In this document: piece after piece, positions 7,891 through 47,952 of the stretch
Numbering within the stretch: position 1 is the first letter of the stretch
How the letters are laid out: each line of letters begins with the position of its first letter
Virus record (IMG/VR): IMGVR_UViG_3300036940_000315
Coordinates: 1-49,546 of that record
Reading direction: 5' to 3' (one strand)
DNA: 49,546 bases
Source of the DNA: a virus
Taxonomy: Duplodnaviria; Caudoviricetes
Notes under the pieces: generated by a model
Told to the model about the DNA's origin: nothing
The model's database searches: none
The model's input: the letters and a program-made list of their open reading frames with translations, nothing else
Translations under genes and position numbers: made by a program

Positions 7891-7897
7891 AATATAA

Positions 7898-8629: not shown

Positions 8630-8644
8630 GAAAGAAAAATTATT

Positions 8645-8890: not shown

Positions 8891-8900
8891 AAGGGAAATA

Positions 8901-11203: not shown

Positions 11204-11204
11204 A

Positions 11205-11525: not shown

Positions 11526-11528
11526 CCT

Positions 11529-11557: not shown

Positions 11558-11583
11558 ATATAGAATTATTAAAAGGAAAATAT

Positions 11584-12660: not shown

Positions 12661-12672
12661 AGAATAAAAAGA

Positions 12673-13516: not shown

Positions 13517-13545
13517 AAAATATAAAGATGATAAAATAAAAAAAT

Positions 13546-14331
13546 ATGATATTACAAAAAACAAAAAATATTAGAAATAAAATAAATCAATTTGAATATC
13601 AATCAGAAAGAATTGATTATTTAAAAAATAAATATAAAAATAAAATATGTATTATAGTTGCTCCCGGTCCATCATTAAATAATTATGATAATAAAAAATT
13701 AAATGAAATATTAGATAATAATAAATATGCAGTAATGGCTATTAAACAAGCATTTAATTGAATTCCATTTAATACAGATTTTCATATTATGAATACTTGA
13801 AATTTTGATAAATATAAAGGATATACTTATCCATTAGATACAATAGTATTTTTTGGTTTATCAAAATCTTATATGAAAGAACAAGCAAAAAAAATAGGAT
13901 TAAAACCAAGCAGATGTGATTTATGAATTCCAATAGTTAATCCTCCTTTTATTGATAGTTTTAATGCAATTCAAAATAAACAAAATTTTGATAAGTTTTT
14001 TGAAATAGGAACTAAATATGAAATGTATTGAGGAAAAAGTATAATATATGAACAAGCATTTCCCTTAGCAATTCATATGGGATGTAAAAAAATAATTACT
14101 ATTGGATGAGATATAGGTAATCCAGATTTAGGAAAAAACCAAGGACATGCATATAATGATAAAGAAATAAAAACAATTCCTTCTGATAAAAATGATATAA
14201 TTGAAGCAATTAATTCTACTTATGAATTATATAGTTGAATGAAAAAAAATAATATTGTTTTGAAAATTTTATCTAATATTAACCCAGCAGATAATAGATT
14301 TGAAAGATTGAATAGTATAGAAGATTTATAA
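13546..14331 (+). CDS. Maf/DUF115-like Rossmann protein, putative nonulosonate transferase (TGA=Trp)
   Basis: CIIVAPGPSL, AIKQA, LAIHMGCKKIITIGWD; adjacent to neuA. Confidence 0.7.
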
Positions 14332-14518
14332 AAAATGAAAGAACCCAACAAGAATTAAATAAATATGTAAGAGTAAAATATAATTCAGGTTGAAGTTGTC
14401 TTGGTTGTTGTTTTATGTTCGCTGATAGGTGTATCGCACCAGATAAATTTATTAAATTATGCAAAAAAAGTTATGTATAGAAAATAAAAAAGAATAAAAA
14501 ATAAAAAAGAAGTAATAA

Positions 14519-15307
14519 ATGAATAAAAATATAGTATTTATGATAAATGTAAATTTAGATAACCAAAGAAATTTACCATATCAATATTCAATTAAATCTT
14601 GAAAATATTGATGTGAATATAATAATTGTGAATTATTTATATTAGATAAACCTATTACAGATATAAATTATATGAAATTAACTTGACAACGTTATTATTT
14701 ATTTGATATATTAAAAGCAAACGATATTGATTATTCTAATAATAAAATTTTAATGGTAGATGCAGATACTATAATTCATCCAAAATGTCCCAATTTTTTT
14801 AATTTAATAAAAGATGATGAATATGGAGCAATATTAAATGATGGATGTTATGAATGAGTAATAAGAAGTATTAAAGGATGAAAAAAATATATTTTTAAAG
14901 ATGATAATTATGTATTGCCTTGAGAATATATTAATGGTGGATTTCAAATTGTTAATAAAAATCATGAAGAATTTTTTAATAAAGTAACAGAATTTTATAA
15001 AAATAATTATATTGAAATAAAACAAGCAACCGATAAAATAAAAGCAGGAACAGATCAAACTTGTATTAATTTTTTATTAAATAGATATAATATCAAAAAG
15101 AAATATTTACCTAATATATTTAATTTACAAGATATGTTTAGAAAAAATTTATTATATACTAATGGTTATTCGTGATGGGATGATAAATTTTTATATACTA
15201 AAGCGGGATGAATATATCATTTTAATGCAATACCAAATAATCATAATGCTGATAAAACTTTAAAATATATGAAAGAATGTTATGAACATTTATATAGAGG
15301 TCTATAA
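14519..15307 (+). CDS. GT-A fold (GT8-like) glycosyltransferase (TGA=Trp)
   Basis: WQRYY, LMVDADT, YINGGF, GTDQT..NF, IYHFN. Confidence 0.8.
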
Positions 15308-15324
15308 ATAAAAAACCTTTTAAA

Positions 15325-15664
15325 ATGATGAAGAAACAAAATAAAAATACTTTTGAAAATTTTTTTAAAAAACCAGAAAATAAAAAAACAGATGAAGAAA
15401 AAAAATTAGAATTTGATATATGAAAATATGAAATAGTAAAATATTGAAGAAATTATCATTTATCATTCAGGAAAAATAATTATGAATAATCAATTATTAA
15501 CATTTCGACAATGAAAATCATTAATTAATCAAAATGATTTAAAAGCCATTTTTGATGACTTAAGAAAGAAAAGATATTTTAAATTAGATTATAATTTTGA
15601 AAATTATTTATATGATGTATATGTTAATTATATTGATGAAATAAAAAAGAAAGTATTTAAATAA
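15325..15664 (+). CDS. two short hypothetical proteins (15325-15489, 15482-15664; TGA=Trp)
   Basis: Overlapping ATG-started frames that tile the gap when TGA=W. Confidence 0.4.
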
Positions 15665-15667
15665 ATA

Positions 15668-16417
15668 ATGAAATATAACATATTTACTTTGTTTGATTCT
15701 GGATATATTAAATTTGCAAGATTATTTTTTAATTCATTTTATAAAACAAATAATATAGATAATATAGAAAATATTTATGTTTATAATCCAACCTTAAAAG
15801 AAGAATATAAAAAATATTTGTCTAAATTTAAAAAAATAGTTTATATTAATGATTATGATAAGAAATCGGTTTTAAAAGAAAATAAATGAACAGAAAATAT
15901 TATACAAAAAACTCATGTTTTAAAACAATTATTAGAAGAAAAAAATCCTTATCCTCTAATAATGATAGATATTGATTGTATGTTTTTAAGTGATATTAGT
16001 GATTTAATAGATAATAAATTTGATATGCAATTTTGTTGTAGAAAATGAAATAAACAAAAACCATTAATAGCAAGTTTTGTTATAATAAATAATAGTAATT
16101 TTTTAGATTTTTTAGAATTATGAATTAAAAAAATCGATGTTACAGAAGGAAAAATAAAAGAAACTCCTGCTATGTGTAAAATATATAAAGAAAATAAAGA
16201 TAAATTTAATATTGGTTATATTAATTATAATATAGTTTCTGCAACAACGGATAAAGAAATAAATGATACAACCAGAATAATTCATTGCAAAGGCAGTGAC
16301 CCAAAAAGAAATAGTCCAGAAACAAGATTAAAAAAATTACATAAAATTAAAAAGATTCCAAATATAAAAAAATTATCAGAAAAATATATTGAGGTTACTA
16401 AATGTATAGCGTCATAA
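15668..16417 (+). CDS. nucleotide-diphospho-sugar transferase (GT-A; TGA=Trp)
   Basis: MIDIDC DxD motif, IASF, IIHCKG; joins two in-frame track ORFs. Confidence 0.7.
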
Positions 16418-17493
16418 GTGCTAATAGAAGTCCTAAAAAAGCAAATAAAAATTGAAGAATATTTGAACAAAAAAATTTAAAAAATTATTTTGGTTCTATT
16501 TTAAATGTAAATGGAGAAGATGGTTTTAGTGTAATAGAGGCATATAAAAAATATAAAAACACAATAAAATATATTAGATGATATCCTGATCCAGAAAAAA
16601 TGAATGGTTCTGAATATAAAGGTATGTTAATTCAATCAAAACAAATTGGAAATATACCTTATATTACAAATTCACCAGAAGGATTTTTAACCGTACAAAA
16701 TAAAGACGAAGCATTTAGAATATGAAAAGAAAATAATATTTATTGTCCTAATTATTTTGCATATAAAGATGAAAAAGATTTTTATATTCAAAATGAAAAA
16801 TATAATATTAAGCCACCATTTTTATTAAGAGTAAATAATGGGGTTGGTGGCTATAATACTTTTATCGTTAGAGATAACAAATATTTATCAAAATCTTTAA
16901 AACAATTAGATAAAGAATTTAAAAATTATAATAAACCAAATCAAAGAATTAAAACTAAAAAATTATGTGTTCAATTAATTAATTCTATAGATAAAGAAAA
17001 GAATGTAAATGTATCATATAGAATACATGTTGCTGGAAATAAAGTAATTTCTGGTTATGCAAGAGTAGTTCCAAGTAAAGAATGATGTGCTATTACTGCT
17101 GGTAAATTTAATATAAATCAAATTGATAATTGAGTTTATTTTAATAAAAAATGTGAAAAATTAATATATGAGAAAGAAAAAGAAATTTGTAAAGCAGTTC
17201 GTGTATTAAAATTAAATCATCAAGGTGTAGATATATTAATTGATGAAAATAATAATATATGTTTTTTAGAAGTACAACCAACTTATTCTACTGGTTATCC
17301 AATAAAAATGGGTAAATATTGCCCACCATATTATAATCCATATGATAAAAATCTTGTTAATTTTCTTAAAGAAAATGAATATTGATTAAAAAAAGAAATA
17401 CCAACATATTATAAAAATTGATTAAATAAAGATAATCATTTTAAACAAGTATATAAACATTTAAAGGAATATATTGATAATGTTTGGACCTAA
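16402..17493 (+). CDS. ATP-grasp (RimK-like) ligase (TGA=Trp)
   Basis: NKDE, PFLLRVNNGVGG, YRIHVAG, GVDILID..ICFLEVQ. Confidence 0.8.
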
Positions 17494-18334
17494 TACATAT
17501 GTTAAAACTAAAGTAAATATAAAATATTCACATAGAGATGATAAATTTTTACAATTATATCAAAAGGTTTCAGAAAAATTTAAAAAAAAATTTAATTTAA
17601 ATGATTATGAAATTATTTTTATTCCTGGAAGTGGAACTGTTGGAATGGAATCAATTATTTTTTCATTAAGAGGAAATATAAATGTAACTGGATACGATGG
17701 AGAATTTAAAGAAAGATGAAGACAATTAGTTAACTATTATTATAAAATTGGTTATGATAATAATCTTTATTGTAGATTAGAAACATCTAAAAGTAAATCC
17801 TTTTCTTTTCCTAAAAAAGGTGGAATAATTGATTGTATAAGTTCTTTTCCATTTTATGATATTGATAATGCAGATATATTTGTTACCAGCACAAATAAAT
17901 TATTAGGTTCTTTAGTAGGATTATCTATTATTGGAATAAAAAAAGATTTTATTAAAAATTTAATTCCTTCATCTAATGTATCATATTTAAATTTAAATAG
18001 ATATCTTAATTATAATTCAATAAATCAAACTCCAACAACTACTCCTACTTATATATTTGAACATCTTAATAAAATATTAGATAATTTTAATATAAAAAAA
18101 TTAAAAAATAAAATTAAAAAAAATTGCCAATTAATATATAATACGATTAATAATGAAAAAGCATTTATTGGAGAAATAATTTGTCCAGTATTAACAATCA
18201 AAAAAGAATATATTAATAAACAATTAGCAAAAAAATGACAATTATATGGTATAAATAAAGATAGTGATTATTATCAAATTTTTACATATTCTTGTCCAGA
18301 TAAATATTATAAACAATTTTGTAAGGAGATTTAA
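17474..18334 (+). CDS. class V PLP aminotransferase (AEP-transaminase/serine-pyruvate-like; TGA=Trp)
   Basis: MFGPN, SHR, GSGTVGMES, ETS, DCISSF, STNK, QTPTT. Confidence 0.8.
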
Positions 18335-18816
18335 TGACAACATTATTTTGTGATGTAGATAATACAATCAATAATCATTTTGAAAGAATTCAGCGATGAA
18401 CTAAAAATGGTAAATGTAATTGAAAAAAAGCCTTTTCATATAAAGAAATTATGAAAGATAAAGTATTACCGGGTTCAATAGAAGTAATAGAAAAATTATC
18501 AACAAAATATAAAATTGTATTTTTAACAGCAAGAAATTTTGGTCATGCTTATAAAGTAACAAAAGATTGATTAGATGAAAAAGGTTTTATTTATGAAAAA
18601 ATTATAGTAGTTAAAAATTCAAAAGAAAAAATAAAATATATTAAAAAAGAAAAAGATTGTTTACTTATAGATGATTTATCAAGAAAACACGAAACTAATC
18701 CGCCATATACTATTTTATATGATGATGTAATTGATAAATTAAATAGATTAAAAATCAATTATGAAATATTTGATGGGGATTGAAATAAAATATTAAAAAA
18801 ATATCTTGTTTTTTAA
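18334..18816 (+). CDS. HAD-family phosphatase/nucleotidase (TGA=Trp)
   Basis: FCDVDNTI, FLTAR, T..WL, LLIDD. Confidence 0.8.
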
Positions 18817-18869
18817 TAAAAAAATTTTTATATTATATATGTAAACAAAGTTAAAAAAAAGAAGTAAAA

Positions 18870-19271
18870 ATGAATAAAATATTAAATTTTGTAAAAGTTA
18901 AAGAGACTGAATTTCAAAGATTTTATAAATTATCAGAACCTGTAGACAAAGTACCAAATAAAAATTATAATTGGGAAGAAGAAAAGAAATATAACCTTTT
19001 ACGATTAAAAGATGAATTTAAAAAATATTATCCAGAATTGATTGAATATGTAGTTGTTTCCGATGCGCATACACATATAGAAAGATTAGTTTTTCTTGGA
19101 ATACCAATTAATGAAGAAAAAACAGATTTTGGTTGTTTGTGTGGTTTTCAATTAGATGGTGATAATACAATGTTGATAGAAGGTGGAGATTTAAATAAAG
19201 TATATCCCGATAATTATTATTTACAAAGATTAGCAGAAGTAAATAATTATGAATTTGGATTTATTAAATAA
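18870..19271 (+). CDS. hypothetical protein
   Basis: 133-aa ORF behind its own sigma70-like promoter (18806-18834). Confidence 0.65.
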   Translation: MNKILNFVKVKETEFQRFYKLSEPVDKVPNKNYNWEEEKKYNLLRLKDEFKKYYPELIEYVVVSDAHTHIERLVFLGIPINEEKTDFGCLCGFQLDGDNTMLIEGGDLNKVYPDNYYLQRLAEVNNYEFGFIK

Positions 19272-19293
19272 TTAAAAATAAAAAAATTAACAT

Positions 19294-19482
19294 ATGAAAA
19301 AAGAAAAAATATATTATTATAGATGTAAAAGATGTGGTAAAATTATATGATTTAATAAAAAACCAAAATTTGAAAAAAATTATACTTGTCAATCTATAAT
19401 GTTTTCCAGAATGAATGGATTATGTGAAGGAGAATATGAATCTATAACAAAAGAGGAATATATTAATGAAACTAAAAAATAA
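19294..19482 (+). CDS. small zinc-ribbon protein (TGA=Trp)
   Basis: YRCKRCG...C...CEG. Confidence 0.45.
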
Positions 19483-20476
19483 ATATGCAATTGGATGTCA
19501 TATAATGTTTTATGAAATTGAAATGATTTCTGAATATATAAATTCATGTTTATTAATGGCTGAAAATGTAGAAAATAAAGAAAATTTATTATTTCATTTT
19601 ACATTTAATAGATCAGAATATTTTGAAAAAATAGATTCTTCTAAAATTTCTAAACAGAATTTAATATCTAAATTTACTGATGAAATGATAAAAATTAAAA
19701 AAGCCGGATTTAAAGTTAAATATAATATTAAAACAAATGATTATCCAATCTATAATATACCTTCTTATAGAAGAGATTTAAATTATAACTATTGTTTAGA
19801 TTATGATTATATTTTATGGGGCGAATCTGATTGTATGTGGGCTAAATCTACATTAGAAGATATTGAAAATATTAGTGAATATTGTAAACAACAAAAAATA
19901 CCTAAACATGTAATAACATTCTCTTATAGAAAAATGTGGGATGATTCTTGGCTTCCTGTTGAACATATAAATTTTAAAAATGTTAAATTTCAAAGGGATG
20001 AAAAATGGCAAGCAACAGCAATAGAAAGTCCTAAATCATATATGGATTATGATACTATGAATAGAATAAATGAAGAAAGTAGAAAAGAACATGGTTTATT
20101 GATTAATATTTTAAAAGAACCTAAATTTGATGGATCCTGTCTTATTATTTCTTCTGAATTAATTAAATCTGGAATTAATATTCCTCATTCTTTATTATTA
20201 TGTAGCGAGGATGAAAGTTTTTCTATGTTATGTAAAAAGATATTAGGAGATAATTTTAGACAAGTTGCTATCCAGAATGTGCTTCGGGTGCATAATCGAC
20301 GACATCCAAAAAAACGGAATTATATTTTAAATGAAGAAAATCCTAAAGGTTTCTGTAATCTAAAGGGTCGTTGGTGGAAAGTATTAGAAGATATGAGTAA
20401 AGAAAATTCTTATAAATTATATCATCAATTTAAATTTAATACTTATGAAGATTTTAAAAAGGAATTAAATAAATAA
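19466..20476 (+). CDS. putative glycosyltransferase (GT-A-like); all Trp encoded by TGG
   Basis: RRDLNY, WGESD, DGSC, EDE, VHNRRHPKKR; position within the glycan cluster. Confidence 0.6.
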   Translation: MKLKNKYAIGCHIMFYEIEMISEYINSCLLMAENVENKENLLFHFTFNRSEYFEKIDSSKISKQNLISKFTDEMIKIKKAGFKVKYNIKTNDYPIYNIPSYRRDLNYNYCLDYDYILWGESDCMWAKSTLEDIENISEYCKQQKIPKHVITFSYRKMWDDSWLPVEHINFKNVKFQRDEKWQATAIESPKSYMDYDTMNRINEESRKEHGLLINILKEPKFDGSCLIISSELIKSGINIPHSLLLCSEDESFSMLCKKILGDNFRQVAIQNVLRVHNRRHPKKRNYILNEENPKGFCNLKGRWWKVLEDMSKENSYKLYHQFKFNTYEDFKKELNK

Positions 20477-21426
20477 TGAACTATAAAATAACATTCTTTT
20501 CAGAAAACGGGTTTGAAGGAAAAGTACCAAGAAATCATCCTAATATGCGAACTGAATATGCTTGAATGTCATCATTAAATGCTGATCATTATAATATTTA
20601 TAATATTCCCAAAAATCTAAATTATGATATTGGAATTATAATTTATCCTAAAAATGTAAAACAACAAATAAATTATAATAATTTATATAATAGTAGTAAA
20701 AAAATAGGAATTATGCAAGAAGGTCCTAATTGATATTGGGAATCATTAGAAATAAATGATCAAATTGAATATTATAATAGTTTATCTACAGTTGATTTTA
20801 TTTTATGTCATAATGAAATAGATAAAAAATATTTTAAAGGATTATTGTTAGATAGTAAACCAGTATATATTTTACCTTCTTTAATTATTGAAAATTTAGT
20901 AAAAAATATAAATACAAAAAAAGAAAATAAAACAATTATAGGTGGAAATTTAACTGATTGATATGGTGGATTTCCTTCATATGTTGTTGCCAGTAATTTT
21001 GGGAATTTAATTTATGTCCCACAAATGGGTAGAATGAAAAAAGAAGAATTAAATATTAATGAAATAAATCATTTACCGTATATGAATTGAATTGAATGAA
21101 TGAAAACGTTATCTATTTTTAAATTTGCAGTTCATATGATGCCCACAATAGCGGCTGGAACCTTCACATTAAATTGTGCCTATTTTGGAATTCCTTGTAT
21201 AGGGTATTTTGAGTTAGACACTCAAAGATTATGTCATACAAATACCTCTGTAAATAAAAGTGATATAAAATCAGCAAGTGAAATAGCGATTAAATTAAAA
21301 AATGATGAAAATTTTTACAATGAATGTTCTAAAAATTGTAAAATAAATTTCGACAAATTTTATTCAGAAAAAGTATTTTTAGAAAAGATGACCAAAGTTT
21401 TTGATGAAATTTTAAAAAAATTTTAA
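20476..21426 (+). CDS. putative GT-B glycosyltransferase (TGA=Trp)
   Basis: NMRTEYAW, MQEGP, AAGTFTLNCAYFGIPCIG, C-terminal FYSEK. Confidence 0.7.
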
Positions 21427-31560: not shown

Positions 31561-32001
31561 ATGCCAATTAGAAAACATTATACTGGAAGTTTAGATAATA
31601 ATATACTAAATCAAAAAGAACTTAGAGAACAAGGTATAAGTATTGAATATCCTTTTGGAAAATCAAATAAACCATTTTCATATACATATAATACATTAGA
31701 AACAGCAAAAAGTAAAATAAAAATGTTATTTGATTCTAAAAAAGGTGAAAGATTGATGAATCCAGAAGTAGGAATGGCTTTAGATAAATATCAATTTGAA
31801 CCTATTAATGAAGCAACTAAATTAGCAATAAAAAAAGAAATATCTGATAATATAAAAAAATATGTTCCTGAAGTTTTTATTATTAAAATGAATATTGATA
31901 TAAATGATAATAATAAAGATAGAAATATTATTTCAGTTAGTATTCAATTTAGTTTAAAAAATGAAGTAAATATTTCTGATAATATTAATTTAGAAATTTA
32001 G
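31561..32001 (+). CDS. baseplate wedge protein, GPW/gp25 family
   Basis: GISIEYPF, KKGERLMNPEVG..L..YQFE, I..YVP.V. Confidence 0.9.
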   Translation: MPIRKHYTGSLDNNILNQKELREQGISIEYPFGKSNKPFSYTYNTLETAKSKIKMLFDSKKGERLMNPEVGMALDKYQFEPINEATKLAIKKEISDNIKKYVPEVFIIKMNIDINDNNKDRNIISVSIQFSLKNEVNISDNINLEI

Positions 32002-32061
32002 ATTATTTATTATTTACTTATTTTTTATTACTTACATAATTATTAATCATGTTTGTTCAAT

Positions 32062-32370
32062 TTAATCGGCAAATTTCCATATATTTCCTTCCCATTCATT
32101 TTTATTATTTAGTGTATATACTACTCCATTATCGCCAAGTCCTAATATCCTGCCCTGTCATGTTTCGTTATTTTCAGTTACAATTATTTGCACTATCTTA
32201 GGTTGCCGTTGAATATTTGATGGAGACGAACTGCTTATTCTTTTTAGCAATATATCATACCACTCTTTTTCATAGTTTTTACTTTTACTATTGCACAATT
32301 CGTACAGGGCTTCTTCAATACTCCCATCTTTATGTGGGTATAAAAAACTTACTTTTTCATCATCATACAT
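32062..32370 (-). CDS. cassette-junction-spanning hypothetical protein (one TGA=Trp)
   Basis: GAGG RBS; reads through a half-site (SSSSPSNIQRQ); continues WQGRILGLGDNG.. past the TGA. Confidence 0.6.
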
Positions 32371-32429
32371 TTTTTACCTCTACTTTCTGAGCGCAGTCGC
32401 TCACGCAGCCATTATATCGTGGTTCATCT

Positions 32430-32657
32430 CTATTTTATCCATTCTTCTTTTTCTGCACATTTTGGACATATCCATACACCATCTTCATCTGGAGGGCAAT
32501 ATTTTATGTGATTTGTATAATGCCATCCTTCTGACTGTGCGTGTGCGTATGAAAAATATATTTCAACGTTCTCGTCTTCTTTTTTTATACAGTCTCGGCA
32601 CGAACACTGTATCGTTTCTTTGTGGTTAGAAAAATTTATTATTGCTATTTTTTTCAT
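32430..32657 (-). CDS. Cys-rich cassette protein
   Basis: GAGG RBS before MKKIAII; CSCRDC ... CPKC. Confidence 0.65.
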   Translation of the reverse strand: MKKIAIINFSNHKETIQCSCRDCIKKEDENVEIYFSYAHAQSEGWHYTNHIKYCPPDEDGVWICPKCAEKEEWIK

Positions 32658-32741
32658 TTTACAAATCCTCTTTATTTCTGTTTTAACGTCAAAAACGATA
32701 TAATAACTGGATGGAGTCAGAACGGCTACAGCCATTGCTTT

Positions 32742-32929
32742 TTACCACCGATTTGTATTTTTACAGTTATTTATTGCTTCTTTTAGATCATCTGCTACTG
32801 CGGTACACTGTTTTCCATCTATTTCTATTACCACCATTTTTTCATCGTTCCAGTGATTATGTACTCTCATATTTGTTTTTTTTTTTTCGGATTATCATAG
32901 TTTGTTACTTCACATGTTATTTTTATCAT
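32742..32929 (-). pseudogene. small protein frameshifted at an A12 tract
   Basis: MIKITCEVTNYDNPK.. then, in a shifted frame, NMRVHNHWNDEKMVVIEIDG...NTNRW*. Confidence 0.6.
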
Positions 32930-33024
32930 TTTTATTCCTTTCGTGGTTATTTACCGCCGTCGCTCATCCTTGTTCATTAGCCGAACACCCTGACGCATTC
33001 TCATGCGTCAGTGTTTTGCTCCGG

Positions 33025-34020
33025 CTACGCAGACGTCCTGTCTGCTTGGTTTATTTGTTTATACTTGTTGTTATAATCAATACATACGTCAAGGCAATTT
33101 TTTCTACATATTGGGTCTTTATATGTATTTAGTTTTTCAAGATATTTTTTTCTTTCTTCCCTCATATTTTCAGATACTACTCCAATAGGCTTACATCCCT
33201 CTCGCATTTTAATTACACATGGATAATGATATTTTCCTTTAATTATAGTATCGTCTATCATTAACCCGCATTTGTGACTATCCATCTTTGTTATTCCACG
33301 TACATTCCTTCCAATTTTGAAATTATTTATTCTATACTTTAAAATTGGATGTTTATTTAATATTTTTTTATCAATATTTAGGTTTTTAAAAATTGAAAAA
33401 TCATTCCATTGTGCTGCTGAAATTATACGTATATCAGAAACACCAAGATTGCTTGCAAACAATATAGAATCTTTCATTTCACTTGAATTTTGCTTGTCGA
33501 AAACCATTCCTACCGTTACATAAGTTAATTTTGACAATTCCCTTATATTAGACACAACCTTTTCCCAAGAACCAATTACGCCTCCAGACATCATATCCCC
33601 AATGGAAGAGCAGCAAGCATCAAGTGAAATTGAATAATCATTAACGCCAAGTTTAATCAAATCTTTGTATAATCCAATATCCGAATAACCATTGGTTGAT
33701 ATTGCAATATGTTCAATTTCAGAACAAACTTCTTTTGTGTATCTGATGATTTCTTTTATTCCTTTATGTACAGTTGGCTCGCCACCAGAAAACCTTACAT
33801 TTTTCACATTTTGTAAAGCCCAAACATCAATAGACTTCTTTACTTCATTTAAAGGCATATCGCCTTTTTTACCATCAATATCAGTTCCCCTGCAATATGG
33901 GCAATTAAAATTACATCTTGAAGTAATAATCATTTCGTTGCGCCATAGCGGTGAGTTTACACATGCGTTTTTTGCCCTAAAATCTTCTAATGTGTAAAAT
34001 CCTATATCTTCCAATTTCAT
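33025..34020 (-). CDS. radical SAM protein (MoaA-like fold)
   Basis: CNFNCPYC, FSGGEPT, ISTNG, SISLD, C-terminal Cys cluster. Confidence 0.9.
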   Translation of the reverse strand: MKLEDIGFYTLEDFRAKNACVNSPLWRNEMIITSRCNFNCPYCRGTDIDGKKGDMPLNEVKKSIDVWALQNVKNVRFSGGEPTVHKGIKEIIRYTKEVCSEIEHIAISTNGYSDIGLYKDLIKLGVNDYSISLDACCSSIGDMMSGGVIGSWEKVVSNIRELSKLTYVTVGMVFDKQNSSEMKDSILFASNLGVSDIRIISAAQWNDFSIFKNLNIDKKILNKHPILKYRINNFKIGRNVRGITKMDSHKCGLMIDDTIIKGKYHYPCVIKMREGCKPIGVVSENMREERKKYLEKLNTYKDPICRKNCLDVCIDYNNKYKQINQADRTSA

Positions 34021-34110
34021 TTTTTTCTCCTCTTCTGATTATTTATTCATCACATTTTCAACTGTTTGCGCGCCTGCTAATAATCACATGGAGACGAACA
34101 CGCACCGTCA

Positions 34111-34326
34111 TTATCTGGACTCGCTTTGGTTTAATATTAGATTTTTAGATATGATTAATTCTTGTCCACAATCACACTTAAATCGTGTTATATTGTTTGA
34201 TTTTGACAAGGTGTTTTTCCAGGTCGTTTTACAATTTGGACATTGAAACTCACTCATATACCACACACTTACATTTTTATGCCATTTTACTATAGTTGAT
34301 TTTGCTCTTTTTGTTGGTTTCCTCAT
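34111..34326 (-). CDS. zinc-ribbon cassette protein
   Basis: AGGAG RBS before MRKPTK; CPNC ... CDCG. Confidence 0.65.
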   Translation of the reverse strand: MRKPTKRAKSTIVKWHKNVSVWYMSEFQCPNCKTTWKNTLSKSNNITRFKCDCGQELIISKNLILNQSESR

Positions 34327-34410
34327 AGTTTTCTCCTTTATTACTGGCTCGCCAAAGATAATAACTGTCTGCACCGCTAACGAGAGTACTCGTACGGTGA
34401 GACCTGTTCA

Positions 34411-34626
34411 TTATATGGATGGCTTATTATATTTTCTAAACATCCATACTGCGTATGATGGTTGTACATCATACTCCAAGTCACCCTTATCGCCTATTTT
34501 TACATTTTTTGGTTTAGCCCACCCACAAAGCAACTCACTCTCTGTTATACCTTCACCATGTTTTACCCTTACGAAATAATCTGTTATTTCAGTTACTTCA
34601 CAATTGTGTCTTACTTTTTTTATCAT
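34411..34626 (-). CDS. small OB-like cassette protein
   Basis: AGGAG RBS; stop lies in the TAATGA half-site. Confidence 0.6.
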   Translation of the reverse strand: MIKKVRHNCEVTEITDYFVRVKHGEGITESELLCGWAKPKNVKIGDKGDLEYDVQPSYAVWMFRKYNKPSI

Positions 34627-34763
34627 ATTTTGCTCCTACGTTTGACGCCACCCTACAATCTCACATGGATCGAACCGCTAAAGCGGTTCTTTTTTGCGAG
34701 TTGTGGCAAATTTTGTTGTTTTTTCATCTTTATTATTCTTTCAGCGGTCGCTCATGCTTGTCA

Positions 34764-34994
34764 TTAGGTGGACTTTATCACTCTTTCTTCTATTATGCGG
34801 ATTTTATCACCTTCATTCAAAATTTCATTATACCTTATCTCAGCATCCTCTATTGATTCAAAAACCCCATCTTCAAAAGTCATCCATTTTTTCCACGTTG
34901 TATCTTCAAAAAATTCCAATCGCCACCTAATAACTTCATGGATTGAACTGCTATTCTCGTCGATATTTTTATTGTTTTTTTCTTTATCACACAT
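34764..34994 (-). CDS. cassette-junction-spanning hypothetical protein
   Basis: AGGAG RBS inside the site loop; half-site translated as SSSIHEVIRW. Confidence 0.65.
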   Translation of the reverse strand: MCDKEKNNKNIDENSSSIHEVIRWRLEFFEDTTWKKWMTFEDGVFESIEDAEIRYNEILNEGDKIRIIEERVIKST

Positions 34995-35051
34995 TTTGAT
35001 TATCTCCTATTTATTGTTTTCATTATCACCGCAGTCACTCATGACTGCACA

Positions 35052-35399
35052 TTAGCCGAACTTATCTATATTTAATTCCAACCACATCCTATTATTTACA
35101 TCTATTTTTTGTGCTATTTTGTTTGCCATATATTCTCTATTATTTTTCTTATCAATAGGTATTTCACATTCAAAGCATAATTCACGAAGCACCTTTTTGT
35201 CTAAACCTTGTAATACTTTACTCCATTTAGTATGGTTTATCTGTAATCGTCGGCTAATACTAGATGGACTCGAACTGCTATGTTGATTTTCTATGATCTT
35301 ATCTTTACACAATTCTATACTTACATGATACCAGCATCCATCTTCCACACTATCCGTATTATATTTACAATCTTTATTTATGCATTTTTCATTACTCAT
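35052..35399 (-). CDS. cassette-junction-spanning hypothetical protein
   Basis: Cys-rich N-part + SSSSPSSISRR linker + C-part. Confidence 0.65.
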   Translation of the reverse strand: MSNEKCINKDCKYNTDSVEDGCWYHVSIELCKDKIIENQHSSSSPSSISRRLQINHTKWSKVLQGLDKKVLRELCFECEIPIDKKNNREYMANKIAQKIDVNNRMWLELNIDKFG

Positions 35400-35443
35400 T
35401 ATCTACATCTCTTTCTACAACCGCAGTCGGTCATCTTTGTTCA

Positions 35444-35806
35444 TTAGCCGAACAGTTCTTTTTCTATTGTTTTTATAAGTTTTTCAATTTTCGCATTGTG
35501 TTCATCCGCTCCGCAAGAACATTCATTTTCATCATAGTCGTCATTTGCACACCCATCTTCCGCTTTTGGGCAACTATACCACGAATCCACACAATAATAA
35601 TGTTCCCGCTTTGCTAATTTTGCTATTTCTTTTATAGCATCTATTGTTTGTCGGCTAATAACTGGATGCAACGATCCACTTGATTTTAGTGTATTGATAG
35701 CATCATTCATCGCTTTTACATATCCGTGATTGTAGGATGATTCGTTTTTATTCGGCATTTCGTGTTCTATTTTTAGTTTTTTGAATTTTCCTATTATTTT
35801 TTCCAT
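35444..35806 (-). CDS. cassette-junction-spanning hypothetical protein
   Basis: N-part + SSGSLHPVISR linker + Cys-rich C-part. Confidence 0.65.
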   Translation of the reverse strand: MEKIIGKFKKLKIEHEMPNKNESSYNHGYVKAMNDAINTLKSSGSLHPVISRQTIDAIKEIAKLAKREHYYCVDSWYSCPKAEDGCANDDYDENECSCGADEHNAKIEKLIKTIEKELFG

Positions 35807-35863
35807 GTTATTATTTCCTCTCTTTCGTTACGTGGTCACTGATCCATGATGCATTGATAGTCA

Positions 35864-36196
35864 CTATTCTTTCTCCCATTGAAGGCAACCAATTTCAGTT
35901 AATCTTAGATTTTCATCTGGAAACATAATGTCTATCTCTTTTCCGTGTTTATTACACATATTACCAATCTCTGCCATGCCAATCCACTCACGATATTTAC
36001 AATTGCTACAAGAGTGACTTTCAATAGTCGCCTGCACCGAACAATCATCCGTGGTTATTATATCAGAAATTGCTGCTGTAAAATTTTCTTGTGTTATTAC
36101 TTTTAATTTTCCTACCTCGGTTTCCGCTTCTAACGCATATTTTTCGAATAGTTCTTGTACATTCATATTTACCTCATTTTTTTTGTTTTCTTTCAT
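35864..36196 (-). CDS. cassette-junction-spanning hypothetical protein
   Basis: N-part + CSVQATIES linker + CSNCKY..C..C C-part. Confidence 0.6.
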   Translation of the reverse strand: MKENKKNEVNMNVQELFEKYALEAETEVGKLKVITQENFTAAISDIITTDDCSVQATIESHSCSNCKYREWIGMAEIGNMCNKHGKEIDIMFPDENLRLTEIGCLQWEKE

Positions 36197-36198
36197 CT

Positions 36199-36699
36199 TC
36201 AAATCTCTTTTTCAAATTTTAAATCTCCATGACATTTACAACAATAATATAACCTTGGATTTTTTTTCATTTTATTATGTTTTTTAATTGATAAGTAATG
36301 TTTTTGACAATTACATTTATAAACATATTTATAAACTCTTGTATCTGGAATATTTACTTTATCTTCTACTCTTTTAGGTGATGCTCCTAATTCAATCATT
36401 ATCATTTGCCAGGTTCTTCCATGACTTAAATTATTATATAATTGTTTATCAACTGCATGGGCGATTTCATGTAAACAAGTATTTTTAAAAATTTCTGGAT
36501 ATTTTTTAACATACCATAAATTTATTTTGATAACAAAAGTTTCTTCAATATTATTAAAAATACATTTACCTAAAGATCTTCCTTTTAAATTGGTATCTAA
36601 ATAAATTTTATTTGTATTAAATTTAGGAAAATGAGTTTTAGTTTTTTCTAAGTATTTTTGAAATGTTAAATGAACTTTAAATTTTTCTTCTGTTGTCAT
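36199..36699 (-). CDS. SprT-like zinc metalloprotease
   Basis: HEIAH, HGRTWQMIM..LG, YVYKCNC, CCKC. Confidence 0.9.
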   Translation of the reverse strand: MTTEEKFKVHLTFQKYLEKTKTHFPKFNTNKIYLDTNLKGRSLGKCIFNNIEETFVIKINLWYVKKYPEIFKNTCLHEIAHAVDKQLYNNLSHGRTWQMIMIELGASPKRVEDKVNIPDTRVYKYVYKCNCQKHYLSIKKHNKMKKNPRLYYCCKCHGDLKFEKEI

Positions 36700-36740
36700 A
36701 ATTTAAAACCTCCTTTTTAATTAACCTTATTTACATATAT

Positions 36741-36768
36741 AATATAAGGAATAAATATATAATATCAA
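36741..36768 (-). promoter_or_regulatory. sigma70-like promoter pointing into sprT and the cassette array
   Basis: AAAAGTTCT-TTGATA-N16-TATATT, followed by AGGAGG RBS. Confidence 0.7.
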
Positions 36769-36866: not shown

Positions 36867-38795
36867 ATGAATAGTAAAAAGAATGTAAATTATTTAGGTA
36901 GAGATTATCAATCATTAAAATCAAATTTACAAACCTTTATAAAAAGTTATTATCCAAATCAATATCAAGATTTTTCAGAAGCATCTCCTGGTGAAATGAT
37001 GATTGAATTAGCATCTTATGTTGGAGACGTTCTTGGTTTTCATATGGATAAAAATTTACAAGAATTATTTTCATCAAATCCTAAACAAAGAAGAAACGCT
37101 ATTGAATTAGCAAAAAGATTAGGTTATAAACCTAAAGCGGCTGTCTCGTCAAATACAAATATTGATATTTATTTAACTGTTCCTGCTACTGGTAGTATAA
37201 ATCAAAAAGTTCCTAATCCTAATTATTTACCAATTATTAAAAAAGAAACAAAATTAAGATCTAATACAAATCCTTCTGTAATATTTGAATTAGTAGAAGA
37301 TTTAAATTTTAAAGTAGATTTAGGAGATTCAAAAATAGAAAAAACAATTGCAGAAGTTGATAATAATAATTTTCCAACAAAATTTTTATTAAAAAAATCT
37401 GTACCTGTTATATCCGGTGAAACTAAATCTTTTACAGTTTCTATAAATGAACCAGAAAAATATCTTTCAATTGAATTACCAAGTGATACAGTAAGTGAAA
37501 TTATTGAAGTAAAAGATGCCGATGATAATATTTGATATGAAGTGGATTCATTAGCACAAGATACAATATTTTTTGATGAAGAAAATTTATTACAAAATGA
37601 TCCAGAAAGTTCTAATGATACATCTACTGTACCATATAATTTAAAATTAAAAAGAGTACCAAAAAGATTTACAGTTAATATAAATGAAGATAATTTAACA
37701 TATATTAATTTTGGTTCTGGTGTTTCAAATTCTAATGATGAAGAATTAATACCAAATCCATCTAATGTTGGTTCACCTATTTTAAATTCAAGTAATAAAT
37801 ATGATTATGCTTTAGATCCTGAAAATTTTTTAAAAACAAAAACCTTTGGAGAAGCACCAGGTAATACTACATTAACAATTAAATATAGAAATAGCGGAGG
37901 TATAAAAACTAATGTACCTGCTAATTCAATTAATACAGTAAATAATGCAGTATTTACATGACCAATAAATGAAAATTTATTAAATTCAAATACAATTTCA
38001 GAAATTAAATCCAGTATTGCTTGTGATAATCCACAACCAGCAACTGGGGGTAAAGGAATTCAAACAAATAAAGAAATTGTTGAAATGTCATTTGCTGAAT
38101 TAAAATCTCAAAAAAGATGTATTACTAAAGAAGATTATATTGTAAGAACTTATTCATTACCTTCTAAATTTGGTAATATTGCAAAAGTATATATTGAAAA
38201 AGATGATATTGTAAAATCTCAATTATCAAATGAAACTCAAATAGCACAAGAAAATAATAATATTACAAGAAATCCATTTGGATTAAATTTATATGTATTA
38301 GCATACAATAACAATAATAATTTAATTAATGCTTCTACTGCATTAAAGAAAAATTTAAAAAATTATTTATCTCAGTATAGAATGTTAACCGATACAATAA
38401 ATATATTAGATGGAAATATTATTAATATAAAAGTAAATTTTGAAATTATAGTTAATAAAAATAAAAATAAAAATGAAGTATTATTAAAATGTATTAAAAA
38501 TTTACAAGATTATTTTAATATAAATAATTGAAATTTTAATCAACCAATTATATATTCTGATATTGCTAAAATATTAACAGATGTAAATGGAGTAAAATCA
38601 ATACCTATTGATTATGATATTAATTCTAATATGAGAAGAGGTATTTGAATTGAATGTCAATATAGTGGAAATTATTCAAATAAATATGTAGATATAAATG
38701 CTTTAACAAAAAATGGAATTATTTATCCGCCTAAAGAAATTAGTATATTTGAGGTGAAATTTCCAAAAACTGATATTGTAGGATATGCTTTATAA
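36867..38795 (+). CDS. baseplate wedge subunit (T4 gp6/baseplate J-like; TGA=Trp)
   Basis: YLGRDY..LK, DFSEASPG.M.IE..SYVGDVL.F, WYEVDSLAQD, INFGSG, GG, QKRCITKEDY; late motif at 36825-36840. Confidence 0.9.
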
Positions 38796-38851: not shown

Positions 38852-39055
38852 TTATGCTAATCTTTTCCCTCAATCAATTGCTTCTTGAGGGCAAGCTGCT
38901 ATACATGCACCACAACTAACACATTCAGAATCGTCTATACATCCTGCTTTTCCATATAACATTTCAAGAGTATCTGTAGGACAAGTATCAATACAAATTT
39001 TACATCCATCGCATTTATCACGATCTACCACTATATTCATTGTATAATTTGACAA
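38852..39055 (-). CDS. 2[4Fe-4S] ferredoxin
   Basis: CDGCKICIDTCP and CVSCGACIAACP; AGGAGG RBS, TTG start; ends at 38870 if TGA is a stop. Confidence 0.9.
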
Positions 39056-39452: not shown

Positions 39453-40265
39453 TTAATTTTCTTCTTCTATATCATTTTCATTATTATCTATTTGTTTACT
39501 TTCAAATTCCATAAAAGACCAATTTTTTAATTTTAAAGGAATCATATTAAAAATATTTTCAATTCTTAATACTATACCTTCTGCTGGTACTTCAAAATTA
39601 TTCATTTCACATTTAGAATCGTTTAAATTAAAATTATCATTTTTTTCTAATTTTTCAATAAATTTTAATGTCCAATTTTTATCATTAAAGTTTAAATTAA
39701 ATAAATTTTTTATTTTTCCATAATAATATAAAGGAGTATATTTTAAACCATATTTATTACAAAAATTTTCAATTGCTGGTCTATTTAATTCAGTAACTAA
39801 ACCATCTTCATTTGTAAATGTTATTTTATAAACATAAAATTCAGAAATTCCTGGTTCACATCCATAATGATAATTTTTTTGAATAAATTTATTATTAGAT
39901 AAATATCCAACAATTTCTCCATATAAAGTAAATCCTTTTGGAATAATATTTTTTAATTTATCAGCCCAGAGTTGCCAAATATTTTCTGAATAATAAGAAT
40001 TTTTATTAGGAAAAAATTTATTTTTTATAACTCGTCTGGATGAATATATACAATCATATTCTTTTTCTTGTATTTTAAAACCTAATTTTTTTAATATTTT
40101 TTCAAAAATATTTAATTTTCTTTTTACTAAAATATTACTAAACACTGCTGATGTATTGTGTATTAAAATGCCATTCGCAAAAAAATTATGAGTAGAATTT
40201 ATTGTTAAATCATATCTATCTTGTTTTAATATTTTTTTGATTGATTTTATTTTTGAATATTTCAT
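39453..40265 (-). CDS. split intein C-part + RNA ligase C-terminal part
   Basis: MKYSKIKSIKKI..RYDLTINSTHNFFANGILIHN|TS; then SRR, LYGEIVG, FYVY, PLYY.G, EGIVLR, LKLK. Confidence 0.9.
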   Translation of the reverse strand: MKYSKIKSIKKILKQDRYDLTINSTHNFFANGILIHNTSAVFSNILVKRKLNIFEKILKKLGFKIQEKEYDCIYSSRRVIKNKFFPNKNSYYSENIWQLWADKLKNIIPKGFTLYGEIVGYLSNNKFIQKNYHYGCEPGISEFYVYKITFTNEDGLVTELNRPAIENFCNKYGLKYTPLYYYGKIKNLFNLNFNDKNWTLKFIEKLEKNDNFNLNDSKCEMNNFEVPAEGIVLRIENIFNMIPLKLKNWSFMEFESKQIDNNENDIEEEN

Positions 40266-40320
40266 TTTATAAATCCTTTCATTTTATATATTAATATAAC
40301 ATTTTTTTAATAATAAACAA

Positions 40321-41430
40321 TTATTTTTTACAATATTCTAATATTTTTTTGATTGTATCATTTTTATTATTTTTTAATTCATTTTCTCAAATAACTAATA
40401 CTTCATAATTATTTTCTTTTGCAAAATTTATTTTTTGTTCATCTTTTTTTCATTTATTTTTTACTAATATCTCACCGTTCGAATTTGCTAATATTCTATC
40501 ATTTGATTTATAAAATTTAGGATTGCCATGTCAATAATCGCCATTTATCTCAATTATTTTATTCGAATTTTTTAAAAGTATATCATATGCATAATATCTA
40601 GTTTTATTTCTTTTTATTTTAAATTCAATAAAAAATTCAATATTATTATTTTTTAAAATATTAAATACTTGTTTATTTAAATTACTAATTATTCCTTGTC
40701 CTCTTACTGAATAACCATGTTTTCAATATTCTTTACCATATCTAGTAATTAACGTATTAATAATTTTTTCTTTAACTTCTTTTCTTTGAAAAACTGTAGT
40801 TATTCCTTCTTCTTCTAATAGTCGTTTTTGTCATTTTATTCTTGAAGGATGATTTTTACAAAAATTATGTTCTGCTCCATATATTTTTAAATTAGTTTTT
40901 CTTATTCTTTGTTTTACTTTTTCATTATTTAATGATTTTTTTATTGAAATATCAATATTTAATTCATTGAATAATTTATAAAAATTAGCAATTGAAAATG
41001 TTGTATATTCCTTTTGTAATTCCAATAAACTTCCTTTTTCATTATATAATTTTTCTAATTTATTTTTATTTAAATTATTTTCTGTTAAAAAATTATATTT
41101 ATTTTCACATCAAATATAATGTTTTTTTAATGCCGAAACAACTGGCTGTTTAATAAAAATTTTATTACAGTACTTACAAGTTGTTTTTGTACATTTAATT
41201 TTATATCTTCTTAAAATTGATTTAAAAAATGATTCATCAATTGGATATTTTTTTAATAAATTTTTTCATCCATTTTCATTATTTATTTCATTTTTTAATT
41301 TTTCAATTGATAAATTATATTTTTTAAAATATTGTTTTAAATTATTACAAAATTTAATTTGTTTTGAATTTATTAATCCATTTTTATTATAATGAGATGT
41401 TTTACAAAAATTACATATTTCATATTTCAT
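40321..41430 (-). CDS. free-standing Vsr/EDxHD-like homing endonuclease (TGA=Trp)
   Basis: YAYDI...IIEINGDYWHGNP...WKKDEQK...YEVLVIWE; T.L..YG repeats; late motif at 41460-41475. Confidence 0.85.
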
Positions 41431-41516
41431 ATAATTAATTCCTTATAAAAAATAATAATTTCAACAATAAATATTTCTATAAAGAAAAAATTACATAGAA
41501 TTGTGTAATTTTTTAA

Positions 41517-42419
41517 TTAGTCAAATAATAAAACATCATCTACTTTCAAATCTTTTACTTCTCTATAACAATTTAAATCTGGTAACCATACAGGATTATT
41601 TGATGTTATCTTTATTTTTTTACCATTTTCTAATTCGATTTCATACCATTCACCATGATTTTTCTTGAAATAATAATTATCAATTGGAACAAAAATAATT
41701 TCATTAGTATTTACATCAAATGCTTTTATTCTACAATCTAATTTATTATCAACTATTTCTTTTATAGTTTTATTACCATATTCTAAAGTTTCTATAATTG
41801 TATCTTCAGAAACACAACCATGAATTTTTTTTGAGATAGATATTATAGATTCTGGTGTTAACAAATGTAAATTTCTTTTTAAATGTTTTGTATCTGGATG
41901 TAAATGAAATTGTCCTTCTATTAATTTAAAAATATTTTTAAATTTATTTTTTTGTTTTCCTTGTCCAGTACCACCAGTTTTATTTTGTTTTACAATATAT
42001 TTTTCACATATTGGAATGCCATTTAATTCATCAAATTCATCACCTAATTTAGGTAAAGACTTTTCATTTGAAGCATAAATCAATGATTCGATTGGCATAA
42101 AAAGTCCTTCACTTTTATGTCCTTGAAATTTTTGTAGTCTTAGTCTTCCATTATCTTCAAAATAACCTTTTTTATTTACGTTAACATTCAATTTTTTATG
42201 TCTATATAAATTATTATTTGAAAGATAACTATTTGATAATTTACATTCTACTGGGAAAAATACCCCAATATCACCTATTTTTGCATTTTTTTGAACAATT
42301 ACATGAGAACCTAAAACAATAGCGCCGGCTATATTATCACAATTTTCTAAAGGGATAATATTATCTATTTTTGCAATAGTAGCACAATAATTTGGATTTT
42401 TTAGTTTTTTTAATTTCAT
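41517..42419 (-). CDS. RNA ligase N-terminal part + split intein N-part
   Basis: OB-like N-domain (I.NCDNI, GDIGVFF, SEGL), KKIHG|CVSEDTII..., intein block B-like ITSNNPVW, VKDLKVDD. Confidence 0.9.
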   Translation of the reverse strand: MKLKKLKNPNYCATIAKIDNIIPLENCDNIAGAIVLGSHVIVQKNAKIGDIGVFFPVECKLSNSYLSNNNLYRHKKLNVNVNKKGYFEDNGRLRLQKFQGHKSEGLFMPIESLIYASNEKSLPKLGDEFDELNGIPICEKYIVKQNKTGGTGQGKQKNKFKNIFKLIEGQFHLHPDTKHLKRNLHLLTPESIISISKKIHGCVSEDTIIETLEYGNKTIKEIVDNKLDCRIKAFDVNTNEIIFVPIDNYYFKKNHGEWYEIELENGKKIKITSNNPVWLPDLNCYREVKDLKVDDVLLFD

Positions 42420-43806: not shown

Positions 43807-44070
43807 TTAAAATCTTTCTGCCGCTTTCCTATTCAAGAAAAAATGAATTCCAGTTGAACATTCTTTAATATTTTCATCATAATCTTCTATGAAAACAGTT
43901 TTTCCAACTTCATATATAAAATTACTATCCCAATTTGATATTCCAGTTTTATATTGTTTTGTTTTTTCAATATTTTCAATTTTCAAAACTTTTGCTTTGT
44001 TAGTTCTACATTTATCATGATTTTCACTTTGAAAAGTTTGATTTTTATCTAATTGTAATTCCGCAATTAA
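43807..44070 (-). pseudogene. DUF5758-like domain lacking a start codon, out of frame with the upstream repeat gene
   Basis: KCRTNKAKVL..., F.YEVG..V, D.....ECSTGIHFF..R..A. Confidence 0.65.
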
Positions 44071-44567
44071 ATTATTTTTGAATTGTTATAAGCCCGAACT
44101 GTTGAACTGTCAAAAGCCTCAACTTTTGAATTATCAAAAACCAGAACTGTTGAATTATCAAAAGCCCGAACTTTTGAATTATCAAAAACCAGAACTGTTG
44201 AACTGTCAAAAGCCTCAATTTTTGAATTGTTATAAGCCCGAACTGTTGAACTGTCAAAAGCCTCAACTTTTGAATTATCACAGGCCCGAACTGTTGAATT
44301 ATCATAAGCCCGAACTTTTGAATTATCAAAAACCAGAACTGTTGAATTATGATAAGCCTCAACTGTTGAATTATCACAGGCCCGAACTGTTGAATTATCA
44401 TAAGCCCGAACTGTTGAACTGTCAAAAGCCTCAACTGTTGAATTTTCATAAACAATGAATTTTTTTATATCACCATAAAACAATATAATATAAGATTCCT
44501 TTTCTAAAATTTTAAAATACTGACTGTTTTCTACTGTAATGTTTAAATTCTCATTTTTGTAATTCAT
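44067..44567 (-). CDS. octapeptide-repeat (beta-helix-like) protein
   Basis: About 15 repeats of (D/N)S(T/K)V(R/E/L)(A/V)(Y/F/C)(D/N); promoter 44604-44632 and AGGAG RBS. Confidence 0.8.
   Translation of the reverse strand: MNYKNENLNITVENSQYFKILEKESYIILFYGDIKKFIVYENSTVEAFDSSTVRAYDNSTVRACDNSTVEAYHNSTVLVFDNSKVRAYDNSTVRACDNSKVEAFDSSTVRAYNNSKIEAFDSSTVLVFDNSKVRAFDNSTVLVFDNSKVEAFDSSTVRAYNNSKII
44075..44445. repeat. 24-bp coding tandem repeat
   Basis: Units such as GAATTATCATAAGCCCGAACTGTT repeated with variants. Confidence 0.9.
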
Positions 44568-47620: not shown

Positions 47621-47952
47621 AAAATTAATGACAAAGAAAGTTCCTATAAATTTTTAGCAACAAAAAAAGTACTTTCCGTTATTAAATTTTATTTTGTGAT
47701 AAAAATAGTTCCTATTTCGAATACTTGCCAGTTAGGCAAACCATATACTATTTATCACAAATTTATGGAAGATGTAGCTCAATTGGTAGAGCACCCGGAT
47801 AAAATTACCTTTCGTTGTTATAGATAGACAAAAAAGGTTCCTATATATTGAAAAAGGACCAGGGGGTTAGAGGTTCAATTCCTCTCATCTTCCCTAATAG
47901 GTAAAAGAAGTTCCTATAAAATTACACATATAATAAAATACTTCTCACTTAT
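47621..47952 (+). ncRNA. array of four covarying stem-bulge-stem RNA units with invariant GTTCCTAT
   Basis: Units at 47621-47690, 47693-47761, 47807-47844 (permuted) and 47897-47952; compensatory stem changes; downstream of promoter 47548-47576. Confidence 0.8.
47767..47893 (+). ncRNA. tRNA-like RNA with ~60-nt structured insert replacing the anticodon loop
   Basis: GGAAGATG/CATCTTCC acceptor, GCTC-AATTGGTA-GAGC D arm, CCCGG/CCAGG anticodon stem, AGAGG-TTCAATT-CCTCT T arm. Confidence 0.8.

Follow-up and report, generated by a model that had tools for sequence, protein, structure and literature searches.

Can a pool of integron-like cassettes replace the GTT core at every one of its sites, and, if so, which arm of its hairpins is cut and what travels with them? 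These questions are raised by a row of hairpins and small genes on the minus strand (32047-36055) of a viral DNA (Duplodnaviria; Caudoviricetes). The sequence studied, here called the window, is the whole linear IMG/VR record IMGVR_UViG_3300036940_000315 (49,546 bases, estimated to be 25% complete). To our knowledge, the GTT core is held to be the one sequence common to all integron sites; a typical integron cassette carries its gene on the top strand, distinct from the recombination site (attC) that follows it. A sequence-only reading of the window had proposed an integron-like cassette array with AAT/ATT cores, moved by a variant recombination system with its crossover, by implication, at the right arm of each hairpin. 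The analysis described below upholds the array and predicts the canonical crossover in the other arm. We consider it likely that an integrase acting in trans moves reversed ATT cassettes at the core beside the stop codon, while a second route re-pairs the fronts and bodies of the genes.

RESULTS

Hairpin sites with AAT and ATT cores

The array comprises ten hairpin elements with AAT/ATT cores, of which eight are complete sites, one is an isolated arm and one is a remnant. On the minus strand, every left core is AAT (8/8; at 35855, 35445, 35053, 34765, 34412, 34112, 32978 and 32413) and every right core ATT (9/9; at 36025, 35659, 35258, 34931, 34659, 34362, 34081, 32704 and 32214), as had been claimed; AAC or GTT, the conserved triplet of attC cores, occurs in none of the 17. 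The arms were picked by eye, and the permutation tests thus gauge the pattern of pairing, not the discovery of the sites. When the letters trailing each right core were compared with the reverse complement of those before the next left core, the matches summed to 46, a value reached by 4 of 40320 permutations; arms of the same site gave 15. The outer-end pairs named in the sequence-only reading (e.g. TTATCT/AGATAA) were all present, some with one mismatch or an extra base. It is with its own opposite end that each body end is complementary, not with the partner arm of the same hairpin, so each cassette regenerates a paired R box, as expected for attC; these outer-end matches are weak in the radical SAM unit (3) and moderate in bodies 4 and 5 (5 and 4, respectively).

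The inner arms pair best with their own partners (the duplexes within sites total -86.4 kcal/mol, the best of 40320 permutations), with the bulges that had been noted. The result is the imperfect hairpin of an attC, in which an unpaired spacer separates the paired R and L boxes, site 6 being degenerate. Folding of whole sites was strong only at site 5 (z -5.46; 0 of 200 shuffles), while sites 3 and 4 gave z values of about -2. Sites 1, 2, 6, 7 and 8 folded no better than shuffles because of their long loops or, at site 6, the loss of the inner arms. Core-to-core lengths were 34, 53, 109, 125, 190, 199, 202 and 277 bp. Both edges of the array are broken hairpins: site 0 lacks a left arm, and a remnant of an arm lies at the other end. 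This remnant, where an attI would be expected, is a 12-letter motif resembling an attC arm; the motif has two matches in the window against 0.03 expected, the pattern having been chosen after both were known. An Rfam search of the window returned no match in the array, only a tRNA elsewhere (a 126-base tRNA-like match at 47768-47893 on the plus strand, absent from the ARAGORN output).

Genes that start inside hairpin loops

Half of the ten array genes start in a loop and cross the core; four are provided with a start of their own downstream of the core, and the remaining one is contained within loop 7. The five loop-start genes all read the ATT core as an Ile codon in the same frame (5/5), four of them from within a complete hairpin, and in five units the TAA stop codon overlaps the next left core. 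These in-frame crossings, the right-arm bulges and the backbone's use of TGA for Trp (both described below) go beyond the sequence-only reading, as does the observation that start codons and N-terminal halves are encoded in the loops, and that these halves occur re-paired with other bodies. Local AT drift was considered as the origin of the ATT cores and rejected, since it would need paired changes at every site and the array genes keep 26 TGG codons and a single TGA; some backbone genes likewise use TGG only.

Bulges and strand bias point to a reversed polarity

Almost all the unpaired bases (21/22) lie on the ATT (right) arm, and, as in attC, two or three extrahelical bases occur on one arm about 6 bp apart; their spacing is regular in sites 1-5 and irregular in sites 7 and 8. 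In the seven intact sites the bulge nearest the core is always a C, 8-9 letters away, and the second lies some six pairs further in, being T in six sites and A in site 1. Position 16/17 is therefore C in 7/7 intact sites, in place of the usual G16 of attC. The coding strand folds better than its complement in all eight sites, by 0.4-2.7 kcal/mol. For the attC sites treated in PMC5027507, the bottom strand is described as folding more stably than the top strand; when recombined it bears extra bases at positions 16 and 23/24, separated by a 6-bp stem and opposite the cleaved triplet, and the core triplet is there described as not important per se. From the placement of the bulges and the strand bias together, we infer that the coding strand of the array is the attC bottom (recombined) strand and that the genes are reversed. 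The genes are thus on the bottom-type strand, opposite to that of a typical cassette, and the canonical cut would accordingly fall at AA|T in the stop-side arm.

A counterpart with AAC/GTT cores and an integrase

Among 36 homologs of the gene starting in loop 1 (35444-35806), the body after the core is common and the loop part is not. Used as a single query, the body-1 protein found no match in viral contigs or annotated phages; an alignment of body 1 found 22 viral loci. When 18 of these were inspected by eye with their flanks, a clear attC arm was seen in three (L207, L208 and L209, the last two nearly identical), so body 1 also occurs as an ordinary gene. In L208 and L209 the body-1 homolog sits among hairpins whose cores are AAC/GTT; their layout is likewise reversed, and the 3' arm bears three bulges. 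The two loci differ by one 703-bp unit, made of a hairpin plus a gene that its motifs suggest is methyltransferase-like; the overlap at the junction is four letters, TAAC, in the arm next to the upstream stop codon.

The records in question (G002 and G003, holding loci L208, L209 and L249) both carry a tyrosine recombinase, and the one tested is IntI (TIGR02249, 357.7 bits, cut-off 265). Just outside the start of intI lies a GTT box that is attI-like by eye, its complementarity with the inverse core of the first attC being exact. The cassette genes of both records are on the strand opposite the canonical one. L249:1441-3160 is a complete integron (IntI, attI-like site and AAC/GTT array) with genes read toward intI. 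By analogy, a standard IntI with its cut next to the stop codon can serve reversed arrays. Bulges and counterpart alike predict the canonical crossover in the left arm, beside the stop codon, rather than in the right arm, and indicate that the gene moving with a hairpin is the one starting inside or behind it, not the preceding body. On both points the sequence-only reading needs correction.

ATT cores and standard integrase chemistry

According to Table 4 of PMC2811028, IntI1 recombines attC-ATT with attI1-ATT at 1.0 of the wild-type rate, while mixed ATT x GTT pairs give 3.1-3.4 × 10^-3 of it (∼300-fold less). No new enzyme is needed for an all-ATT array, since IntI1 recombines ATT x ATT at the wild-type rate; by analogy with these mutants, such an array should be nearly cut off from GTT integrons. 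It is probably a natural orthogonal cassette pool rather than the substrate of a new enzyme. Of the proposed variant recombination system, the ATT-core cassettes stand, while new chemistry is not required.

Six exact pattern scans, five with arm motifs and one with a longer core motif, gave 28, 7, 2 and 1 loci in viral collections, 54 in metagenomes and 25 in GTDB genomes. By motif screens and reading, none of these loci had partner arms or arrays, and the matches look like chance. These blanks are weak, because the strict hairpin detector recovered only one of the eight window sites. BLAST of the array against annotated phages returned only radical SAM matches, and against plasmids no match; against 253 collected loci, only body-1 homologs and one 38-letter match were found outside the radical SAM gene. 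A search with the loop-2 peptide found only itself. Neither natural AAT/ATT arrays nor cassette genes starting inside attC loops were found in the mainly open-access literature (without supplements), and the idea that archaeal attCs use AAT/ATT was not borne out, the main text of a preprint on them holding no AAT.

Re-paired modules in other samples

Part of the array is held by 12 public runs, none of them an RNA dataset; the contigs of five (X3-X7) were compared, X1, X2 and X8-X12 being left out. Twelve loose ends were found in 34640-36170, of which 11 fall on hairpin arms or no more than 12 letters from a core, the other (35468) not being at a site. Five of the 12 are within one letter of a core, and three of these represent one junction in three runs. 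Three contigs differ at the stop-side core: a different body precedes hairpin 3 in X6, with the break exactly at AAT, and in X4, with the break 9 letters before AAT, within shared letters; in X3, a different loop comes after body 0. For the ATT core, X4 and X7 join 35248 to 35650, an exact 401-base skip from ATT to ATT with 11 shared letters containing ATT, and in X4, X6 and X7 hairpin 3 is joined to a new body one letter after ATT, the hairpin copies having two or four differing letters in 126-135. A crossover solely at the stop-side core had been considered and was abandoned once the 35248/35650 joint appeared. Arms of this array's family with other loops or bodies were found in three further contigs.

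All four new bodies are open in the ATT frame (hand reading of 30 letters each). In protein comparisons, loop half 0 (36/52 identical) occurs on a Lar-like body in P0040, and loop half 8 (32/34 identical, 94%) on an unrelated body in P0043; in both, the switch comes two or three residues after the Ile. The same runs also hold pieces of the backbone with 0-1 differing letters. Three of six joints (31855/32002, 32034/36261 and 34046/36774), one of which would skip the whole array, were dropped because their sides of 24-26 letters lie in AT-rich DNA, and joint 32236/35835 (side 34) is uncertain. A wider comparison (24 of 68 loose ends) gave mostly short matches away from the sites. Had gene order been fixed, with breakpoints unrelated to the core, the cassette reading would have been weakened; instead, content varies, breakpoints fall at cores, and a relative, L059, has no array. 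The reordered cassettes that the sequence-only reading had suggested searching for in relatives appeared as re-paired modules in other runs, while further arrays did not appear in the pattern scans.

How the array may move

The array is real and dynamic, and works like a CALIN (cluster of attC sites lacking an integron-integrase), though it departs from the GTT, G16, length and gene-orientation conventions. The mechanism we favour starts from what was observed: its anatomy, the frames of its genes and, in other samples, a change of neighbours at each of the two cores; the remaining steps are inferred. An IntI-type integrase from elsewhere would cut the folded coding strand beside each stop codon and so move whole genes, the main mobile unit being a hairpin with the gene that follows it. 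The ATT sites would recombine among themselves and hardly with GTT integrons. The block seems to have entered the phage's accessory slot by non-site-specific capture, since both of its edges are broken hairpins, and its genes are probably read from the phage promoter of that slot. Body swaps would proceed by top-strand cleavage or through 4 to 12 letters of homology around ATT, and, with ATT invariably read as Ile, would not disturb the frame.

Several observations weigh against this mechanism. The main strain is the frequency of ATT-core swaps, which here look at least as common as stop-side swaps, because wild-type attC top strands recombine 1000-10000 times less (PMC5027507). No tyrosine recombinase (PF00589, stops read through) was found in the 25% complete record, in agreement with the sequence-only reading, nor any in the L059 record (9% complete); exact pattern scans of the viral, metagenome and GTDB collections gave no ATT-core site beside an integrase, and the IntI evidence comes from an AAC/GTT element rather than from the ATT-core family. 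Circular cassettes, which had been suggested as a check, were looked for, and no circle joint was present in the contigs of X3-X7. The re-paired contigs are short, have a depth of 2-8 and are not tied to the backbone of this phage; the oil-field studies that supplied the runs may be one campaign. Four of the eight sites are longer than the 57-141 bp of attC.

A stronger version of the proposal, namely a private ATT pool in which the integrase cuts both cores, loop starts and bodies are dealt separately and rejoin in frame, and the whole is insulated from the GTT integrons of the host, is possible but doubtful.

The hairpins might instead be inherited relics, with present shuffling driven by homology (phage annealing proteins or slippage) and no integrase acting. 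Several breaks do fall where sequence is shared (over 11 letters, 9 letters or whole arms), neither site 6 nor either edge of the array is intact, the record yielded no integrase and the window encodes a PD-(D/E)XK exonuclease. We nevertheless think this unlikely, since only 3-4 letters are known to be shared at the five loose ends lying within one letter of a core, the outer ends of the bodies are still self-complementary, and the 4-letter overlap in the counterpart is too short for homology.

The polarity of the sequence-only reading, with the main crossover at the ATT after the loop, a cassette made of a body plus its downstream hairpin, and moves that fuse the body to an upstream loop start, must also be weighed. 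It would account for the only exact deletion joint of this array (401 bp, in X4 and X7) being at the ATT core, for four of five loop halves being found on other bodies, and for the constant frame at ATT. However, the IntI-bearing counterpart breaks at the other arm, in agreement with its attI-like box, and in X3 the same body is followed by another downstream loop, which makes this polarity decidedly unlikely as the main one. Finally, an IntI-unlike tyrosine recombinase (phage or Xer-like, encoded in the missing part of the genome or by the host), cutting both cores with little strand preference and dedicated to two-part genes, would fit the breakpoints at both cores and the C at position 16 instead of G, but is very improbable given that no such gene was seen in the record, that the geometry fits IntI substrates and that the one counterpart tested has a standard IntI.

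The slot, its genetic code and the features of the window

The backbone of the window encodes baseplate, RNA ligase and glycosylation genes. Judged from its sequence, this backbone reads TGA as Trp: frames of at least 100 codons cover 0.88 of the window when TGA is read, versus 0.57 under code 11 and 0.59 when TAG is read. Of the four TGA positions in the baseplate wedge gene, two are Trp in relatives (50/55 and 53/54) and two are variable. Four backbone genes that were checked hold 14 TGA and no TGG, while the RNA ligase parts and a nucleotidyltransferase use TGG only, a split that suggests mixed origin or timing. The array occupies a variable slot between two baseplate genes, so both flanks are structural; L059, 70-83% identical in both flanks, has unrelated low-GC (guanine plus cytosine) genes in the same slot. 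The GC content of the island (32047-36200) is 33% (33.5%), versus ∼20% in the flanks. Promoter-type matches are no commoner than in shuffles (34 versus 28); L059 has a similar promoter-like site at the corresponding place (by eye). Where the SprT-like gene ends depends on the genetic code (36199 with code 11, 36169 with code 4). The features are collected in Table 1.

Table 1. Array sites, genes and flanking features, in order of position
Feature	Position	Strand	Basis or remark
gp25-like baseplate gene, backbone flank	31561..32001	+	PF04965; conserved in L059
Remnant of further arm; downstream island edge	32047..32075	unassigned	12-letter motif as in left arm 2
Gene starting in loop 8; crosses ATT 32214 in frame, reads through one TGA	32062..32370	-	
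Site 8, 202 bp	32212..32413	-	
Small Cys-rich gene with own start	32430..32657	-	
Site 7, 277 bp; loop holds whole small gene 32742-32870	32702..32978	-	
Radical SAM gene	33025..34020	-	PF04055
Site 6, 34 bp, internally deleted	34079..34112	-	
Small CxxC protein gene with own start	34111..34326	-	
Site 5, compact 53-bp hairpin	34360..34412	-	
Small gene with own start	34411..34626	-	
Site 4, 109 bp	34657..34765	-	
Gene starting in loop 3; crosses ATT 34931 in frame	34764..34994	-	
Site 3, 125 bp	34929..35053	-	Other neighbours on both sides in other runs
Gene starting in loop 2; crosses ATT 35258 in frame	35052..35399	-	
401-bp unit (body 1 + hairpin 2)	35249..35649	-	Missing from contigs of two other runs
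Site 2, 190 bp	35256..35445	-	
Gene starting in loop 1; Cys/His-rich body after core; TAA overlaps left core 2	35444..35806	-	
Site 1, 199 bp core to core	35657..35855	-	
Gene starting in loop 0; crosses ATT 36025 in frame	35864..36166	-	
Site 0, loop and right arm only; upstream edge of GC island	36023..36200	-	Arm reading, GC
SprT-like gene, first of slot, outside array	36169..36699	-	PF10263; GC 0.21
Sigma70-like promoter match upstream of slot	36739..36768	-	10/12 consensus
Baseplate wedge gene, backbone flank	36867..38795	+	Read through 4 TGA

Within the array, site 6 is probably dead, and the loop of site 4 holds a 24-codon frame (34653-34727) with its stop just past the core (read by hand). 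In loop 7, a 12-A run (32874-32887) separates an upstream start from the small loop gene, the 5' part being out of frame; it could be a slippage switch or an assembly error. For the loop-8 gene, homology to proteins of Vibrio phages extends across its TGA. Radical SAM homologs in other viral contigs showed no such arms in their 200-base flanks (17 loci, by eye). After the stop of the radical SAM gene of the array come two extra GC-rich hairpins (32985-33050), possibly the remains of another site or terminators for the plus strand.

Elsewhere in the window, the RNA ligase gene (39453-42419, minus strand) is split by intein halves, and between its parts lies a separate TGA-containing frame of 369 amino acids, endonuclease-like by eye (DUF7487). 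A long plus-strand cluster (2337-21426) holds glycosyltransferase, NeuB, cytidylyltransferase, methyltransferase, ATP-grasp and aminotransferase genes, most of them complete only under code 4. A protein of 8-residue tandem repeats (24-base units; 44067-44567, minus strand) gave a weak beta-flower match, and a small gene at 38852-39055 (minus strand) encodes a 4Fe-4S dicluster ferredoxin.

DISCUSSION

Laboratory work predicts that the first core base can be switched only if all partners switch together (PMC2811028). The array looks like a natural case of such a switch across a whole pool, which makes cassette pools that do not mix testable; it can now also be tested whether detection tools trained on GTT overlook ATT-core pools. 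Reversed cassettes with a start codon in the hairpin would be accessory genes ready for expression in phages. Fronts and bodies that re-pair in frame, as seen across samples, provide a concrete way for new small proteins to arise, and are relevant to the question, still open, of how cassettes come about. ATT sites would serve as orthogonal parts in integron-based DNA shuffling. If the stronger version of the proposal is correct, the pool would be a natural site-specific machine for the combinatorial assembly of new two-part proteins.

Among known systems, the CALINs described in PMC9892861 occur in virulent phages and have G|TT junctions, and five of six phage attCs tested there recombined with IntI1. 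They too are clusters of attC-like hairpins and small genes in a phage with no integrase, but the array described here is all ATT/AAT, and its genes are reversed and start inside the hairpins. With the canonical attCaadA7 and VCR sites, as presented in PMC5027507, the array shares R and L boxes, an unpaired spacer, 2-3 extra bases ∼6 pairs apart and strand bias; it differs in having A as the first core base, C at position 16/17, the gene on the bottom strand and loops of up to ∼220 bases that code for protein. The G002/G003 integrons resemble it in that their layout is reversed, a gene starts in the loop, the Cys/His-rich body is homologous and, on the coding strand, the 3' arm bears three bulges; they differ in their AAC/GTT core, the G at position 16 and the adjacent intI and attI-like site. 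The engineered ATT mutants of attCaadA7 and attI1 in PMC2811028 carry the same base change and are fully active when both partners are changed; those are laboratory constructs, whereas here the change is found at every site of a natural array.

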